Virus record (IMG/VR): IMGVR_UViG_2875713109_000005
Direction: 5' to 3' (one strand)
Length of the DNA: 40,475 nt
Origin: a virus
Taxonomy: Duplodnaviria; Heunggongvirae; Uroviricota; Caudoviricetes
Each line of letters begins with the position of its first letter. The first letter of the stretch is position 1. Below, one piece after another: positions 5,446 through 15,035 of the stretch. Below the pieces are notes generated by a model. It was not told the origin of the DNA and made no database searches. It saw only the letters and a list, made by a program, of their open reading frames with translations. A program made the translations under genes and the position numbers.

Positions 5446-5742
5446 AAAATCGTGTTGAGGCCAACGCCCATAATGCGGGCAGTTACCCGGCATCCAACGC
5501 CATTCATGGCCATATCAATGATTTTCTGGTGCGTACCGGGTTGAGAAGCGGTGTAAGTGAACTGCAGTTGCCATGTTTTACGGCAGTGAGAGCAGAGATA
5601 GCGCTGATGTCCGGCGGTGCTTTTGCCGTTACGCACCACCCCGTCAGTAGCTGAACAGGAGGGACAGCTGATAGAAACAGAAGCCACTGGAGCACCTCAA
5701 AAACACCATCATACACTAAATCAGTAAGTTGGCAGCATCACC
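5446..5742 (-). mobile_element. insA: IS1 left-end fragment (IRL plus insA)
   Basis: The reverse complement of 5700-5742 is GGTGATGCTGCCAACTTACTGATTTAGTGTATGATGGTGTTT, the IS1 IRL. The InsA frame [43 protein letters not shown]... runs into the IS903 fragment at 5445. Confidence 0.85.
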
Positions 5743-9492: not shown

Positions 9493-9961
9493 CAGAACAC
9501 TCGGCCAGCAACATCCGCTTATTGGCGATGCGCTTGAACGAATAATGCACAGACTTATGATTCTGATAAGTTTTGTTGCCAGAGAGTTGCTGCGGACTGG
9601 ATAGCAAGTAATGTCGATTCTCAGGGGTAGCAAACAGCGCAGTAAAATGAGGGAAGTAGTGGCAAAACATAGAGAAAATTGGGGGGCGAGGGCCAGTGAT
9701 GTAAAAAACCACGCTAAGAGTTTAATTAATTGTTTGTATTGAAGTTTAATGATCTTAACTCACCCTTAAGAATATCTTCCGGTAACGAAGACGTATAATG
9801 CCCCAGCATATTTATATGGCTATGTATCAGCAGCGATAATCTTGCCGGATGCTACTCCTCAGGAGTTTCTCCCGATTTGCGAAGATGTGACAACGCCTCC
9901 TGCATGTAAAGTGTGTTTCACAGCACAACCGCATTGGTCACCAGCCCCAGAGCACCTAGTT

Positions 9962-10112
9962 GATCTTCCTGCCCTTAACGGTAGCTGAAGATGACTGGGC
10001 TGGATGGAAAATCCTGCATGGTGCATTGGGAGAGCAGATAGAATTGGTTGGCGACGATCTGTTTGTGACCAACGTAAAGTATATTCAGCGCGGCATTGAC
10101 GAAAACCTTGCA
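9962..10112 (+). pseudogene. enolase-like gene fragment
   Basis: The translation ...[43 protein letters not shown] resembles the conserved enolase segment (..DW..W......[16 protein letters not shown]...). There is no start codon, and upstream and downstream homology are lost. Confidence 0.45.
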
Positions 10113-10348
10113 ATCCTTTGTGTATCATTAAAATCTTTGTAGTAATCAGATTCCTTTCCATAACTGTCTTCAAGTAACTTTTTTGCTCTTGCAATCCAGT
10201 TATTACCTTTAGCCGAATCAATATATTCCTGGCTTCTGTGACTAAATGCACTTGTTCCCATATATTTTGTCGACATGACAGAATTGTACTCTTGTTCAAG
10301 CACTTCAAATCTTTCAGCTAAGGCCTTCTTCGTCATAGCGCAATCCAA
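10085..10348 (-). CDS. hypothetical protein, probably 3'-truncated
   Basis: 87-aa ORF ([20 protein letters not shown]...). Its last ~9 codons read through the enolase-like fragment, suggesting its native C-terminus is lost. I recognise no family. Confidence 0.35.
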
Positions 10349-10775: not shown

Positions 10776-11255
10776 CTACTGGCTTGCTGTGCCAAACTTT
10801 CCGTTGCAGATTTCCTCATTCACAATGGCCTGAAACATGGAAACAGAATTTCTAGCCTTATCCCTCAGTGCATTAATGAGTTCTGTGTCGTGTATTTTGT
10901 TGTAGAAAATGAAAGTAGAAACATCAAACTGGAGTTTAAATGCTGCTTTCCTTATGGCTAAACCTGACGTGATCGTTATCTCATTATGTATGCGAAGATA
11001 GGCAAGATAATCATCGTTATTTGCTTCACACTGCTCATATAAATATTTTTGCATGAGAGATTGAGACAAGGCCAGAAATTCCACATATCGTTTGGTTTTT
11101 ATTTCTTTATCTTTTAATCCCTGTACTGCCGCTTCTTTTTTTAATTCGTGCTTTTGTGTTAGCTTAAGAGTCAGCCACCCCCCTAAAATAGTCAGCAACG
11201 ACCCCAAACCTATTTTTACGGCATTATCAGCCACATCCACCCACTCAGTCGCCAT
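10776..11255 (-). CDS. N-terminally membrane-anchored helical protein, unknown function
   Basis: 159 aa with one TM segment (IGLGSLLTILGGWLTL) followed by a predicted helical soluble domain. AT-rich. Confidence 0.5.
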   Translation of the reverse strand: MATEWVDVADNAVKIGLGSLLTILGGWLTLKLTQKHELKKEAAVQGLKDKEIKTKRYVEFLALSQSLMQKYLYEQCEANNDDYLAYLRIHNEITITSGLAIRKAAFKLQFDVSTFIFYNKIHDTELINALRDKARNSVSMFQAIVNEEICNGKFGTASQ

Positions 11256-11372: not shown

Positions 11373-11822
11373 ATGGTTAAATTTCCAGGTGAAGTTATGA
11401 GTTCGTCCGCTGCTGTAACCGTTATAACTGGTGTTCTTGTTTTTGTTGGTGGTCAGCTCATTGTAAAGAGCGCGATTGAACCTTATATAGAATTCAAGAA
11501 ACAATTGGGAAAAATATCAAATCTGCTATTAGCTAACCAAGCTAAATTAGCTAATCCTTGTGCTGTTGAAATGTCTGAGATCATCCATGAGTTGAAAGAT
11601 GCCGCAGCTCAGTTAATGTCGAAGCATTCAGCTTTGCCTTTCTATATCAAAAAATTCCATATCGGATTCCGCTTTGTTCCATCAACGCCTGAAATTATTA
11701 GTTCGGCGCAAAAATTGAATTTGATAGCATCAATACATGAAGGTAAAAGCAAGGAAAGTACATATGAGCACATAGCCGAGATTGGACGTATGCTCAAAAT
11801 CCCAACCACCTATTCTCTTTAA
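11373..11822 (+). CDS. N-terminally membrane-anchored helical protein, unknown function
   Basis: The likelier start is ATG 11397, preceded by AGGTGA. It has one TM segment (AAVTVITGVLVFVGGQLIV) followed by a helical domain, and is divergent from 10776-11255. A terminator-like hairpin plus T5 follows at ~11880-11905. Confidence 0.5.
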   Translation: MVKFPGEVMSSSAAVTVITGVLVFVGGQLIVKSAIEPYIEFKKQLGKISNLLLANQAKLANPCAVEMSEIIHELKDAAAQLMSKHSALPFYIKKFHIGFRFVPSTPEIISSAQKLNLIASIHEGKSKESTYEHIAEIGRMLKIPTTYSL

Positions 11823-11994: not shown

Positions 11995-12039
11995 CGCCTT
12001 TAACGCCTTTAACGCCTTTAACGCCTTTAACGCCTTTAA
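11995..12039. repeat. 9-bp tandem repeat CGCCTTTAA x5
   Basis: Five perfect head-to-tail copies, followed by a G6 run. Confidence 0.95.
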
Positions 12040-12110
12040 GGGGGGAAGATAGAGCAACTCACCGATGATGAATAAAGTGGACGAAGAGACGATAACTACA
12101 CTCCCATCCA

Positions 12111-12127
12111 GGGGGGGGGCTTTTTTT
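12111..12127. repeat. homopolymer pair G9-C-T7
   Basis: GGGGGGGGGCTTTTTTT, ~320 bp upstream of the 12449 gene. Confidence 0.9.
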
Positions 12128-12448
12128 GTGGTACTGTAGTGTGGGAGTAAGTTCGGGTCTCATATTGAATGAGGCGATTGCGAGCTGCCTTTCATCGAAA
12201 ACTAATGTCCATTGTCATTGTATTGTCTGACTCTATCTCGTAACAAGTCTTTGACACAAAGTTTTATATTTTTATCAAAGTGGACATGAGGGGAATTAAA
12301 TTTGTGATCTTTTTCAAATAATGTGTTCTTGATAGTAGATTCTGGTTAGTGATATCTATTAACAATATATTAAATTTCTTTTGTATTATCGCTGATAAAA
12401 CTACTGTATTGGTATACTATATATTATTGAGTAACAGGAGATATCACT

Positions 12449-13951
12449 ATGAAGAAATTTTATCAATTTAGGGATGAACAGCGAAAGGAGCTTGAACAAC
12501 ATGATTTTTATAGTTTGATTTCTTCAGATTGTATAGCGTTGAAAGACAAACTATTATTTGCTCCTGTTATGGCTCATTTCATAATGAACTTCAGAGACAT
12601 GAATAAATGGGTTATCAGGTTTGATAACAATGATAATGAATATAAATCTGTTATAAACGGTGGAACAATCGAGGATGAAACACATTCAAGATTGTTTCTG
12701 GAAGACTGGAGGAAACTATATATAGATGACAAACTTAACTGGAAAGCAAGTGATGTTATATACTGGTTGTTTATTAGTCGAGAAATGGAGTGTTTCCGAA
12801 AATTTGGTATTGATTTTATGAGACTTTGTGTAGATGATGGAGGAGACCCAATACTTCGATATTCTCACTCCGAGTCAGGAGAAACTTGCGGTAATATATT
12901 CTTTTCAAGAATTAGTCCTATTGCTGATCAAGTTGCCAATCATTTGGGAATATCACTCCGTTATTTTGGAACATTTCACCTTAATCTTGAAAATGGACAT
13001 GTATGGAAGTCAGAAGGTGTTTTTGAAAATATAGAGTTGTCACCAGATTCTTATAAGAAAATGGCTACTCTATCAAAGAGAATGTTTGATATATTTGAAG
13101 GAATTCATGACTCTTTTTATAATTACCTGTCCAGTTATGTTCTTAATGGAAGTCATCCGTCATTTTTTGAATCATTACCTGTAGGGAAAAATGTTGCACC
13201 TATATACCCTGAATTTGTGATAGAAAACAAAAGCCATAACGATGGTAGACATATTGAACATATAAACAATTACCTGGAAAAAATATCGAGTCATGAGTTC
13301 TTTAAATGGCTGATTAACACCTCAATAGACCCTCAATTGAAATTGAAAAGTTTCATACCTCTTTGGATTGTTGATATTATGGGGTATAGAGATATTAATA
13401 AATATGTTTTTACATATGAACAGCCTGAATCAGAAAGTGAAAAGATTATAAATGATTATGCATTACACTTGTCAGAGCATAGCCGTTTATTTTATCATGA
13501 CTGGAAGTCACTTCAACTTGATGATATGTTACGTTGGAGTGCCAGTGATACTCTTGAGTTTATTTTTCTTAATTCAGATATGGATATGCATAGAGAAAAT
13601 ATAGTTAAGTTTTCTTTGTTCGGATTAAAACACAGAGATCCTGTTATCAGGTTCTGGTTTATGATGATACTGGAGTTAAGTGGAAAAGAATTTTTCTCTC
13701 ATGTTGGAGATATAGCTTTACAGGTGGAAAGTAAATATAATATTTATCTCCCATATTTATGTGGACGCCATGCAACAGAAAATGAGCATGAAGCATATAA
13801 TAATATGTATGAGCATTTTATGGTAAAGGAACTTAGCCCTGAACAAAGTGATCTAATAATACAAATTACAGACATGGTTATGCGGTCATTATTGAATAAT
13901 TTGGATATCTCATATCGATATGTAGTAAATAATTTATTGGCAGCTCGTTAG
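12449..13951 (+). CDS. 500-aa protein made of two tandem heme-oxygenase-like (putative diiron, PF14518-like) domains; function unknown
   Basis: AGGAG lies 8 nt upstream of the ATG. The gene is very AT-rich. There is an internal duplication: HDFYSLIS...FAPVMAHFIMNFRDMNKWV...ETHSRLFLEDWRKLYIDDKLNWKASDVIYWLF in the N half matches HEFFKWLIN...FIPLWIVDIMGYRDINKYV...SEHSRLFYHDWKSLQLDDMLRWSASDTLEFIF in the C half. The E..H..LF..(D)W..L motif is reminiscent of iron-containing redox enzyme / HO-like folds. Confidence 0.7.
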   Translation: MKKFYQFRDEQRKELEQHDFYSLISSDCIALKDKLLFAPVMAHFIMNFRDMNKWVIRFDNNDNEYKSVINGGTIEDETHSRLFLEDWRKLYIDDKLNWKASDVIYWLFISREMECFRKFGIDFMRLCVDDGGDPILRYSHSESGETCGNIFFSRISPIADQVANHLGISLRYFGTFHLNLENGHVWKSEGVFENIELSPDSYKKMATLSKRMFDIFEGIHDSFYNYLSSYVLNGSHPSFFESLPVGKNVAPIYPEFVIENKSHNDGRHIEHINNYLEKISSHEFFKWLINTSIDPQLKLKSFIPLWIVDIMGYRDINKYVFTYEQPESESEKIINDYALHLSEHSRLFYHDWKSLQLDDMLRWSASDTLEFIFLNSDMDMHRENIVKFSLFGLKHRDPVIRFWFMMILELSGKEFFSHVGDIALQVESKYNIYLPYLCGRHATENEHEAYNNMYEHFMVKELSPEQSDLIIQITDMVMRSLLNNLDISYRYVVNNLLAAR

Positions 13952-14051
13952 AAGAACAGCATTGGTATGACTCTGATGCTCCTTAAAATCCCACTTTTCA
14001 GAGTGGGATTTGTTTAATGCCCAGAACAGGGGGAATTTCCATTCATGCCCA

Positions 14052-14348
14052 GGTGATGCTGCCAACTTACTGATTTAGTGTATGATGGTGTTTTTGAGGT
14101 GCTCCAGTGGCTTCTGTTTCTATCAGCTGTCCCTCCTGTTCAGCTACTGACGGAGTGGTGCGTAACGGCAAAAGCACCGCCGGACATCAGCGCTATCTCT
14201 AATTGAGCGGCATAACCTGAATCTGAGGCAGCACCTGGCACGGCTGGGACGGAAGTCGCTGTCGTTCTCAAAATCGGTGGAGCTGCATGACAAAGTCATC
14301 GGGCATTATCTGAACATAAAACACTATCAATAAGTTGGAGTCATTACC
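14052..14348 (+). mobile_element. internally deleted IS1 (both ends retained, ~297 bp)
   Basis: IRL GGTGATGCTGCCAACTTACTG... runs from 14052 through the first ~149 nt (insA 5'). The sequence then jumps at ~14201 to the last ~148 nt of IS1 (...AATTGAGCGGCATAACCTGAATCTGAGG...AAGTTGGAGTCATTACC, ending at 14348). Confidence 0.85.
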
Positions 14349-14406: not shown

Positions 14407-14444
14407 GGGGGCACCTCAGAAAACGGAAAATAAAGCACGCTAAG
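14407..14444. repeat. Tn21-subgroup 38-bp terminal inverted repeat (mer end)
   Basis: GGGGGCACCTCAGAAAACGGAAAATAAAGCACGCTAAG. The merR stop lies inside it, as in Tn21. Confidence 0.8.
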
Positions 14445-14874
14445 GCATAGCTGACCTTGCCAGGCCTGCTTCGCCCTGTAGTGACGCGATCAACGGGCAG
14501 GAAACATTCCCCTTTCGTGCATGGCAGGCGCACACGAGTTCAGACAGCACGGTTTCCATGCGCGCCAAGTCGGCCATCTTCTCGCGCACGTCCTTGAGCT
14601 TGTGTTCGGCCAGGCTGCTGGCCTCCTCGCAGTGGGTGCCATCGTCGAGCCGCAACAGCTCGGCAATCTCGTCCAGACTGAACCCCAGCCGCTGTGCCGA
14701 TTTCACGAATTTCACCCGAACCACGTCCGCCTCCCCATAGCGGCGGATGCTGCCGTAAGGCTTGTCCGGTTCCCGCAACAGGCCCTTGCGCTGATAGAAG
14801 CGGATTGTCTCCACGTTGACCCCGGCCGCCTTGGCAAAAACGCCAATGGTCAGGTTTTCCAAATTATTTTCCAT
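14440..14874 (-). CDS. merR: Hg(II)-responsive transcriptional regulator MerR
   Basis: 144 codons from ATG 14874 ([33 protein letters not shown]...). The metal-binding Cys residues are present in [12 protein letters not shown]. The ORF-track N-terminal extension is spurious. Confidence 0.95.
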
Positions 14875-14879
14875 ATCGC

Positions 14880-14910
14880 TTGACTCCGTACATGAGTACG
14901 GAAGTAAGGT
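14880..14910 (+). promoter_or_regulatory. merOP: PmerT promoter with the MerR dyad operator
   Basis: -35 TTGACT (14880-14885), dyad TCCGTACATGAGTACGGA (14885-14902) and -10 TAAGGT (14905-14910), with the characteristic 19-bp spacer. Confidence 0.9.
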
Positions 14911-14945
14911 TACGCTATCCAATCCAAATTCAAAAGGGCCAACGT

Positions 14946-15035
14946 ATGTCTGAACCACAAAACGGGCGCGGTGCGCTCTTCGCCGGCGGGCTGGCCGCCA
15001 TTCTTGCATCGACCTGCTGCCTGGGGCCGCTAGTA
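14946..15035 (+). pseudogene. merT: merT 5' fragment truncated by Tn3-family insertion
   Basis: [30 protein letters not shown], after which the Tn3 IR starts at 15036. Confidence 0.9.

Follow-up and report, generated by a model that had tools for sequence, protein, structure and literature searches.

A 500-residue protein of ColV-type plasmids built of two AetD-like domains, the first of which keeps a complete set of predicted diiron ligands

The stretch of DNA analysed here, IMG/VR record IMGVR_UViG_2875713109_000005 (a virus record of the Caudoviricetes; 40,475 nucleotides, hereafter referred to as the window), harbours an intact 500-codon open reading frame (ORF) with an ATG start, the product of which is deposited as WP_000715078.1 (“hypothetical protein”) in RefSeq and as Q849W5_ECOLX (“Uncharacterized protein”) in UniProt. 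A first-pass annotation of the window had described an AT-rich gene with a strong AGGAG ribosome-binding site and a long AT-rich leader, located next to the Fe/Mn transporter genes sitABCD inside a unit bracketed by copies of the insertion sequence IS1. Direct reading of the sequence confirms the former features, the G+C content of the gene being 32.3% as compared with 50.4% for sitABCD and 45.5% for the window. The IS1-bracketed unit holding both sitABCD and the gene was also found to exist, since identical IS1 terminal repeats lie on either side of it (Table 1); none were obtained from shuffled sequences, and NZ_CP145635.1 has an annotated IS1 at the position corresponding to the downstream repeat. 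Many Escherichia coli ColV-type IncF plasmids contain the region at 99.9-100% identity.

The two halves of the protein align with each other, as had been noticed earlier. BLASTP comparison of the halves revealed 32% identity over 173 aa (E=3e-25), and the motifs quoted in the first-pass annotation are visible in this alignment. When an alignment of 75 full-length homologs, on which all residue counts given below are based, was split into N-half and C-half profiles, hhalign matched the two over 226 columns with a probability of 100% (E=3.3e-51). Hence, the internal duplication is real, ancient and family-wide.

Both halves had been supposed to be heme-oxygenase-like (HO-like), and this is borne out by sequence and structure comparisons. 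A phmmer search against PDB sequences detected whole-domain similarity of each half to AetD, the diiron nitrile synthase which converts tryptophan to indole-3-carbonitrile in aetokthonotoxin biosynthesis (E=2.6e-18 for the N-half, aa 1-231; E=1e-5 for the C-half). The full-length AlphaFold2 (AF2) model, obtained with the family alignment as input, is a two-domain, all-alpha structure with a mean predicted local distance difference test score (pLDDT) of 94.2, a predicted template modelling score (pTM) of 0.93 and a lower-confidence linker at approximately aa 240-266, while the C-half modelled alone reached a pLDDT of 97.3. The seven-helix heme-oxygenase-like bundle is present in both models. 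Foldseek, a search recommended by the first-pass annotation, ranked all AetD chains at the top for both of them (template modelling (TM) score 0.82-0.88, root mean square deviation ∼2–4 Å, 18-24% identity; TM 0.82-0.87 for the C-half-only model), with TenA, HamA, UndA, CADD, PolF, HrmI, RohS and SznF far behind. The AetD sequence matches together with this ranking place both halves within the AetD branch of the heme-oxygenase-like diiron oxidase (HDO) fold. W..L..D..L.W.ASD, the most strongly conserved motif of the two halves, lies in the segment aligned with the dimerisation region of AetD around T95/M96. The pTM value suggests that the two domains are packed in a fixed manner, and, by analogy, this packing may resemble that of the AetD dimer, i.e. 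have a “fused dimer” geometry.

In AetD, Fe1 is ligated by H79, H172 and E176, and Fe2 by D76, E140, E176 and H179 (PMC10654658). In the phmmer alignment the residues D76, H79, E140, H172, E176 and H179 of AetD correspond to D76, H79, E145, H177, E181 and H184 of the N-half, which are conserved in 75, 75, 74, 75, 74 and 69 of the 75 homologs, respectively. The 3-His/3-carboxylate set on core helices alpha-1 to alpha-3 is therefore complete in the N-terminal domain. As judged by the predicted ligands, the proposal that both halves are diiron domains holds for the N-half, where all six AetD ligands are kept, but not for the C-half, where the set is incomplete and at least two of the six positions are lost. 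The E..H pair put forward as ligands in the first-pass annotation has to be replaced, since the alignment with AetD assigns this role to D76 and H79 of the conserved “EDETHS” motif.

The predicted substrate pocket of the N-half is likewise reminiscent of AetD, in which the amine and carboxylate of the substrate chelate Fe1, Y167 forms a hydrogen bond with the carboxylate, and F44 and F48 stack on the indole (PMC11611611). Equivalent contacts are kept in the N-half: Y172 is found in all 75 homologs, F44 in 73, and F48 is invariant. The latter residue occupies the position at which SznF and RohS carry a Glu ligand, leaving the Fe1 site open. S214 of AetD, which contacts the 7-bromine of the substrate (PMC10654658), is replaced by F216 in the N-half (65/75 homologs); the same substitution by Phe occurs in SktA, the substrate of which has no 7-bromine (PMC13108848). 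Since Y172, F44, F48 and F216 are shared with AetD or SktA, these features point to a free, tryptophan-like aromatic L-amino acid as the probable substrate of the N-half.

The C-half presents a remodelled site. It keeps H344 (75/75), E409 (72/75) and H441 (75/75) among the ligand positions, but the position of the Fe2-ligand Asp is taken by an invariant leucine, L341, the equivalent of H179 is variable, and the position of the bridging Glu, 445, is His in 55 of the 75 homologs and Asn in the E. coli protein. Because of these three changes the C-terminal domain, which does not carry the full 3-His/3-carboxylate set, is unable to hold a diiron cluster of the AetD type. By analogy with mononuclear HO-like enzymes, among which the loss of core alpha-3 ligands is known (PMC13108848), it could hold one metal at most. 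The aromatic clamp F44/F48 is replaced in this half by the invariant D309 and Y313. The C-half is nevertheless not decaying and is under purifying selection: 16 of its columns are invariant, compared with 15 in the N-half, and the ratio of nonsynonymous to synonymous substitution rates (dN/dS) relative to the Salmonella copy is 0.10 (0.096) for the N-half, 0.17 (0.172) for the C-half and 0.56 for the linker (0.156 for the whole gene).

The gene had been regarded as an orphan. It is indeed unannotated, yet more than 100 full-length homologs exist across several phyla. A word-indexed search returned 115 homologs, nearly all of which are full length (∼500 aa), with identities to the window protein of 86% in Salmonella, 68% in Yersinia, 44% in Piscirickettsia and 31-44% in Comamonadaceae, Myxococcota and Actinomycetota. 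An exhaustive profile search yielded 741 cluster representatives at E≤1e-3, of which 151 reach E≤1e-30; full-length tandem proteins make up about 45 of the representatives, and single-domain relatives of 230-260 aa match profile positions 1-235 only, i.e. the N-half. AetD itself is a homodimer of single domains both in the crystal and in solution (PMC10654658, PMC11611611), so that the fused pseudo-dimer is as unusual as had been suspected. The literature searched contains no tandem or fused HDO, no didomain AetD homologue and no paper on WP_000715078, and the ColV plasmid papers searched treat the ORF as hypothetical; within that literature, an asymmetric HDO-HDO fusion and a family of such taxonomic spread are undescribed. 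Of 5,426 complete E. coli genomes, 265 (4.9%) carry the gene; it occupies 269 places in them, 264 of which are on plasmids. In PLSDB it is carried by 285 plasmids (262 from Escherichia, 22 from Salmonella and one from Shigella), of which 257 are conjugative. The Yersinia copy is chromosomal and widespread in the Y. pseudotuberculosis complex (e.g. BZ17_1893 of IP32953), where it is always annotated as hypothetical.

Several relatives depart from the common architecture. Two distant ones, P0210 (1222 aa; locus L083, 8001-11669) and P0197 (1039 aa), have the tandem HDO unit fused to an IucA/IucC-type ligase domain, and P0210 carries an additional ThsB-like TIR domain at its C-terminus; judged by their domains, these fusions give a hint of amide-ligation or signalling roles. 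P0201 (891 aa) combines a single-domain AetD-like HDO with a flavin-dependent monooxygenase (Pyr_redox_3 / FMO-like) and thereby resembles the SktA and SktC pair in one polypeptide. The UniRef name of P0055 from Actinomadura meridiana, “Propane 2-monooxygenase”, appears to be an unsupported automatic label, all other members being named “hypothetical”. Naturally split N and C genes, which would have spoken for a heterodimer, were also considered; the clearest stand-alone C-half, P0140, is probably truncated, since it starts 145 bp from a contig end.

The first-pass annotation saw no partner biosynthetic genes, which is correct for the window but not for the family in other phyla. Among 78 loci surveyed in other genomes, a cytochrome P450 gene was found within 7 kb in 34. 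In 21 loci it lies on the same strand less than 300 bp from the HDO gene, in some cases with overlapping stop and start codons. Either of the two genes may come first, and the P450 is found in Actinomycetota, Myxococcota, Comamonadaceae and Oligoflexus. Nine Pseudonocardiaceae loci have a gene for a FAD-dependent aromatic-ring hydroxylase next to the HDO gene, and 10 and nine of the 78 loci contain an O-methyltransferase and a thiamine diphosphate-dependent enzyme, respectively. As P450s, hydroxylases and O-methyltransferases are aromatic tailoring enzymes, in these phyla the HDO seems to stand at the head of a small aromatic pathway. In Amycolatopsis orientalis (L008, 10001-12986) two tandem-HDO paralogs are located back to back and adjoin a P450, two methyltransferases and a DUF6875 protein in a compact cluster-like arrangement; the second paralog (488 aa, 33% identity to the window protein, E=1e-106) appears to have no equivalent of H184. 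In Mycobacterium and Mycolicibacterium (L010, L016-L021, L024, L034 and L076) the homolog is consistently preceded by a divergent PAS-GGDEF-EAL gene, which may reflect either lineage synteny or a link to cyclic di-GMP.

Within Enterobacterales, the gene is solitary, horizontally acquired and mobile. DNA similarity to the Salmonella copy is confined to positions 12294-14013 of the window, that is, the gene with ∼155 bp upstream and ∼60 bp downstream. The Yersinia homolog (Yersinia similis, L011, 8101-14293; 68% identity) forms a one-gene islet between thiBPQ and sgrR, the S. arizonae copy is flanked by a molybdoenzyme gene and sbcB, and the Piscirickettsia copy lies among insertion sequence elements, partition genes and prophage genes. 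On two other E. coli plasmids the gene is found either beside finO and a SprT-like gene or beside IS110, hha and hns. No halogenase or other biosynthetic gene lies beside the enterobacterial copies examined. The small ORFs upstream of the gene in E. coli, Salmonella, S. arizonae, Yersinia and Piscirickettsia were considered as partners and rejected, as they are mutually dissimilar. Carriage as a passenger of a Tn3-family element was rejected as well: the inverted repeats of the Salmonella transposon enclose only tnpA, with the gene outside, and the Tn3 fragment present in the window has no DNA similarity to the Salmonella Tn3-family element.

Linkage to sitABCD had been taken as a hint of metal-dependent chemistry, but the comparative data do not bear this out. 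The G+C contents of the gene and of sitABCD differ by 18 points, and the interval between sitD and the gene is filled by transposase, enolase and mdh fragments followed by two unrelated hypothetical ORFs. The leader contains no MntR box beyond chance, and its best Fur match (13/19) is equalled in 23% of shuffles, so that regulation by Fur or MntR was dismissed; the sitA promoter, by comparison, reaches 15/19 (Fur) and 19/22 (MntR). No sit genes are found near the copies in Salmonella, Yersinia, Piscirickettsia and the two other E. coli plasmids. Thus neither conserved linkage nor co-regulation with sitABCD was found, and the adjacency is incidental in view of the G+C gap, the intervening fragments, the terminator-like hairpin upstream of the gene, the leader devoid of such boxes and the sit-free hosts. 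The position of the gene beside sitABCD looks like an accident of IS1-mediated plasmid mosaicism.

The features of the gene and its surroundings are listed in Table 1. The leader presumably holds the promoter of the gene, although a consensus scan called no strong sigma-70 site within it. The hairpin, one of six sites returned by the terminator scan (shuffle mean 1.0), separates the gene from upstream transcription. A perfect 9-bp tandem repeat, CGCCTTTAA x5, occupies positions 11995-12039 of the upstream intergenic DNA, shortly before a G-run and this hairpin.

Table 1. Coordinates of the tandem HDO gene, its predicted domains and ligand codons, and flanking signals in the window
Feature	Position	Strand	Basis
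IS1 end, partner of the downstream repeat	5720-5742	-	exact 23-nt match to the IS1 inverted repeat
Terminator-like hairpin with T-run, boundary feature	12101-12118	+	terminator scan
AT-rich leader, co-mobile with the gene	12294-12448	+	start of DNA homology to the Salmonella copy
Shine-Dalgarno sequence AGGAG	12436-12440	+	read from the sequence; 8-nt spacer to ATG
Coding sequence of the 500-aa tandem HDO protein	12449-13951	+	ORF list; identical annotated coding sequence in ColV plasmids
N-terminal AetD-like HDO domain (aa 1-235), predicted catalytic, full 3-His/3-carboxylate set	12449-13153	+	phmmer, Foldseek, ligand columns
Span of the six predicted iron-ligand codons and Y172	12674-13000	+	residue mapping onto AetD; codon positions checked
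D76 codon, predicted iron ligand	12674-12676	+	
H79 codon, predicted iron ligand	12683-12685	+	
E145 codon, predicted iron ligand	12881-12883	+	
Y172 codon, equivalent of AetD Y167 (hydrogen bond to substrate carboxylate)	12962-12964	+	
H177 codon, predicted iron ligand	12977-12979	+	
E181 codon, predicted iron ligand	12989-12991	+	
H184 codon, predicted iron ligand	12998-13000	+	
Inter-domain linker (aa 236-265)	13154-13243	+	lowest pLDDT (62-82), dN/dS 0.56, variable length
C-terminal AetD-like HDO domain (aa 266-500), remodelled site	13244-13948	+	phmmer, AF2 and Foldseek, column conservation
Downstream IS1 terminal inverted repeat	14052-14074	+	exact 23-nt match to the IS1 inverted repeat

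The fragments between sitD and the gene lie at approximately 9726-10336 (offset from the annotation of NZ_CP145635.1) and derive from genes of a Tn3-family transposase, enolase (phosphopyruvate hydratase) and malate dehydrogenase; they look like debris of earlier recombination. The two hypothetical ORFs which follow are divergent (10776-11255 on the minus strand, 159 aa, and 11373-11822 on the plus strand, 149 aa, annotated as 141 aa) and encode products with hydrophobic N-termini. Neither has a Pfam match and neither is found beside the homologs of the gene in other hosts; the 149-aa product gives a weak match to the PADLOC model “CARF, 2 TMs” (E=0.022). On the other side, similarity to reference ColV plasmids ends at ∼14351, about 300 bp into the downstream IS1, and a MerR-like regulator ORF follows at 14440-15009 on the minus strand. 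We take this region to be a Tn21-type mer module, and the arrangement suggests that the downstream IS1 has been truncated by a mercury-resistance module in the plasmid represented by the window.

Among characterised systems, AetD (PDB 8JI2-8JI7, 8TWN/8TWT/8TWW and 8ZVG/8ZVH) is the best match of both halves in sequence as well as in structure. The N-half shares with it the six ligands and their unusual arrangement along the helices (D/H on alpha-1, E on alpha-2, H/E/H on alpha-3), the Tyr which holds the substrate carboxylate and the F44/F48 clamp; moreover, the aet cluster includes a P450, as do many of the family loci described above. AetD, however, is a homodimer of single domains of ∼240 aa, whereas here two diverged copies are fused and the second is devoid of the Fe2 site; the pocket residues G144, C147, F151 and F216 differ, and no halogenase, tryptophanase or P450 is found nearby in the window. 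SktA, an AetD homologue, is an O2-dependent skatole synthase which converts tryptophan to skatole, hydrogen cyanide and bicarbonate (PMC11869266). By its published description it also belongs to the AetD-like HDO branch and has Phe at the position of S214, and its one-enzyme conversion of tryptophan, accomplished without other proteins, provides a precedent for a stand-alone reaction. Yet SktA is a single-domain, cyanobacterial protein, the gene of which lies beside those of a halogenase and a flavin monooxygenase. Neither the ∼240-aa single-domain form nor the tryptophan-halogenase cluster of the AetD/SktA type is thus found here. The streptozotocin enzyme SznF, a distant fold match, resembles the window protein in that its HDO domain is fused to another domain, but it combines HDO, cupin and dimerisation domains rather than two HDO domains, has a 3-His/4-carboxylate site, is independent of substrate and performs N-oxygenation. 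Mononuclear HO-like enzymes (HamA; the class is described in PMC13108848) have a site of the 2-His-1-carboxylate type which resembles H344, H441 and E409 of the C-half; they are, however, stand-alone domains with a chemistry of their own, and AetD rather than HamA is the closer structural match of the C-half. Finally, Haem_oxygenas_2 (PF14518, “Iron-containing redox enzyme”) is the general family which the first-pass annotation had in mind. An Amycolatopsis paralog approaches it below threshold (18.1 bits versus a cut-off of 28.9), but the window protein and its halves do not match it even at E≤10, and the gathering threshold of neither this nor any other curated family is reached.

Taking these data together, we consider it likely that the gene encodes a stand-alone, O2-dependent, pseudo-heterodimeric HDO, with a catalytic N-domain, a C-domain acting as its dimer partner and, probably, an aromatic amino acid as substrate. 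Its ancestor would have been a single-domain, ∼240-aa, homodimeric AetD-like enzyme, the gene of which was duplicated and then fused; this is the simplest history, given that single-domain relatives match the N-half only and that AetD is dimeric. The N-copy would have kept the ancestral site, comprising six ligands for a labile Fe2 cluster, the open Fe1 position, the carboxylate-binding Tyr and the aromatic clamp, while the C-copy diverged, preserving the fold and losing the Fe2 site. By analogy with AetD, SktA and UndA, an amino acid would bind to the N-domain through its amine and carboxylate and organise Fe1. Core helix alpha-3 would then become ordered, completing Fe2 and thereby the diferrous cofactor, addition of O2 would give a peroxo-diferric intermediate, and oxidative C-C or C-N chemistry would cleave or rearrange the side chain of the amino acid. 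The C-domain would most likely serve as a permanent, covalently attached dimer partner stabilising the N-domain, and may in addition carry an auxiliary site for a mononuclear metal or a ligand. In Actinomycetota, Myxococcota and Comamonadaceae the enzyme would feed a tailoring pathway with P450, flavin hydroxylase or O-methyltransferase steps. As the gene is solitary in Enterobacterales, the substrate there would have to be a common metabolite.

Several observations weigh against this picture. The full protein and each of its halves have no relevant Pfam, NCBIfam or PADLOC match at E≤10, and the tandem HDO family therefore falls outside the current Pfam and NCBIfam models. Three residues of the N-half pocket are unlike those of AetD (M139 is replaced by G144, A142 by C147 and I146 by F151), and with an identity of just 18-24% neither substrate nor reaction can be confidently transferred from AetD. 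One must also bear in mind that AetD and SktA, with shared ligands and near-identical substrates, make different products (PMC13108848). Furthermore, the C-half is as well conserved as the N-half, a pattern no less compatible with a second functional site than with a purely structural partner.

The last point leads to a bifunctional enzyme, in which an N-terminal diiron oxidase would be followed by a C-terminal mononuclear non-heme iron centre (2-His-1-carboxylate) catalysing the consecutive step, the fusion serving to channel an unstable intermediate. We regard this as possible but rather less than probable. The number of invariant columns, not lower than in the N-half (16 versus 15), and the C-half dN/dS of 0.17 speak for it, as do the conserved polar residues predicted to line the C-half cavity (D309, Y313, H344, E409, R440, H441 and, in 55 of 75 homologs, His445); mononuclear HO-like enzymes are known (PMC13108848), with HamA among the fold matches, and SznF joins an HDO to another catalytic domain. 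The third Fe1-type ligand, however, is unconserved, the E. coli protein having Asn at position 445, and in structure the C-half matches the diiron AetD more closely than a mononuclear HDO. The solitary state of the gene could also be read as that of a mobile defence or competition gene, the product of which turns a common amino acid into something toxic or volatile, such as cyanide and skatole, acting against phage, competitors or the host; a toxic product would explain why the gene travels alone on plasmids and genomic islets. Such a role agrees with the solitary low-GC islets in Yersinia and S. arizonae chromosomes, the diverse conjugative plasmids and the Piscirickettsia copy among insertion sequence, prophage and plasmid genes, with the presence, by proximity only, of Abi-family genes within a few kb in pO177B1 and Mycolicibacterium, with the fusion of a tandem unit to a ThsB-like TIR domain in one relative, and with the release of cyanide by SktA (PMC11869266). 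We nevertheless hold it to be improbable, since the window protein has no PADLOC match, the recurrent neighbours (P450, flavin hydroxylase and O-methyltransferase) are typical of secondary metabolism and not of defence islands, and the TIR fusion is a single protein cluster on two contigs.

The lack of partner genes would find another explanation if the protein, like CADD, which yields p-aminobenzoate, sacrificed its own side chains to produce a small metabolite. CtCADD is among the fold matches and an invariant tyrosine, Y313, is predicted in the C-half cavity; still, CADD matches are weaker (Foldseek E 0.006-0.28, TM ∼0.6, versus ∼1e-8 to 1e-6 and ∼0.85 for AetD), and the N-half keeps the features by which AetD binds a free amino acid (Y172, and Phe at the site of the extra Glu ligand of SznF and RohS), which makes such chemistry very unlikely. 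Least credible of all seems to be the idea, hinted at by the first-pass annotation, of a metal-dependent accessory of the SitABCD transporter. The gene does share the IS1-bracketed segment with sitABCD, and an iron enzyme could benefit from the import of iron or manganese, but the comparative context already largely refutes this, for the reasons set out above: the base composition, the intervening fragments and unrelated ORFs, the upstream hairpin, a leader unlike the sitA promoter, and the sit-free copies elsewhere.

The HDO superfamily is growing fast and has more than 10,000 members, but few reactions have been assigned within it; deorphanising its members is a declared aim of the field (PMC13108848). 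Fold, ligand motif and kinship to AetD place the window protein within a known kind of enzyme, and in this respect its assignment is unsurprising; what appears to be new is the fused, asymmetric HDO-HDO architecture, which is not covered by any curated model. The closeness to AetD and SktA provides a concrete and testable substrate hypothesis and, as no partner genes accompany the enterobacterial copies, a single-protein assay should reveal the chemistry. The fused form also represents a natural experiment in which a homodimeric metalloenzyme has turned into a catalytic subunit and a pseudo-subunit. A more far-reaching interpretation, which we put forward tentatively and deem rather doubtful in its entirety, is that conjugative plasmids of avian and extraintestinal pathogenic E. 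coli, those of the ColV type included, and chromosomes of the Y. pseudotuberculosis complex encode a stand-alone diiron oxidase which converts a free aromatic amino acid such as tryptophan to a small bioactive or volatile product in one O2-dependent step (by analogy, for example, an indole nitrile, or skatole and cyanide), using an asymmetric HDO-HDO protein whose second domain has a mononuclear or ligand-binding function of its own. Since the gene is intact and under selection on virulence and resistance plasmids and in the Y. pseudotuberculosis complex, any such product could influence how fit or virulent these pathogens are. If true, this would add a new architecture to the HDO superfamily and reveal an unrecognised small-molecule trait of a major class of virulence plasmids.

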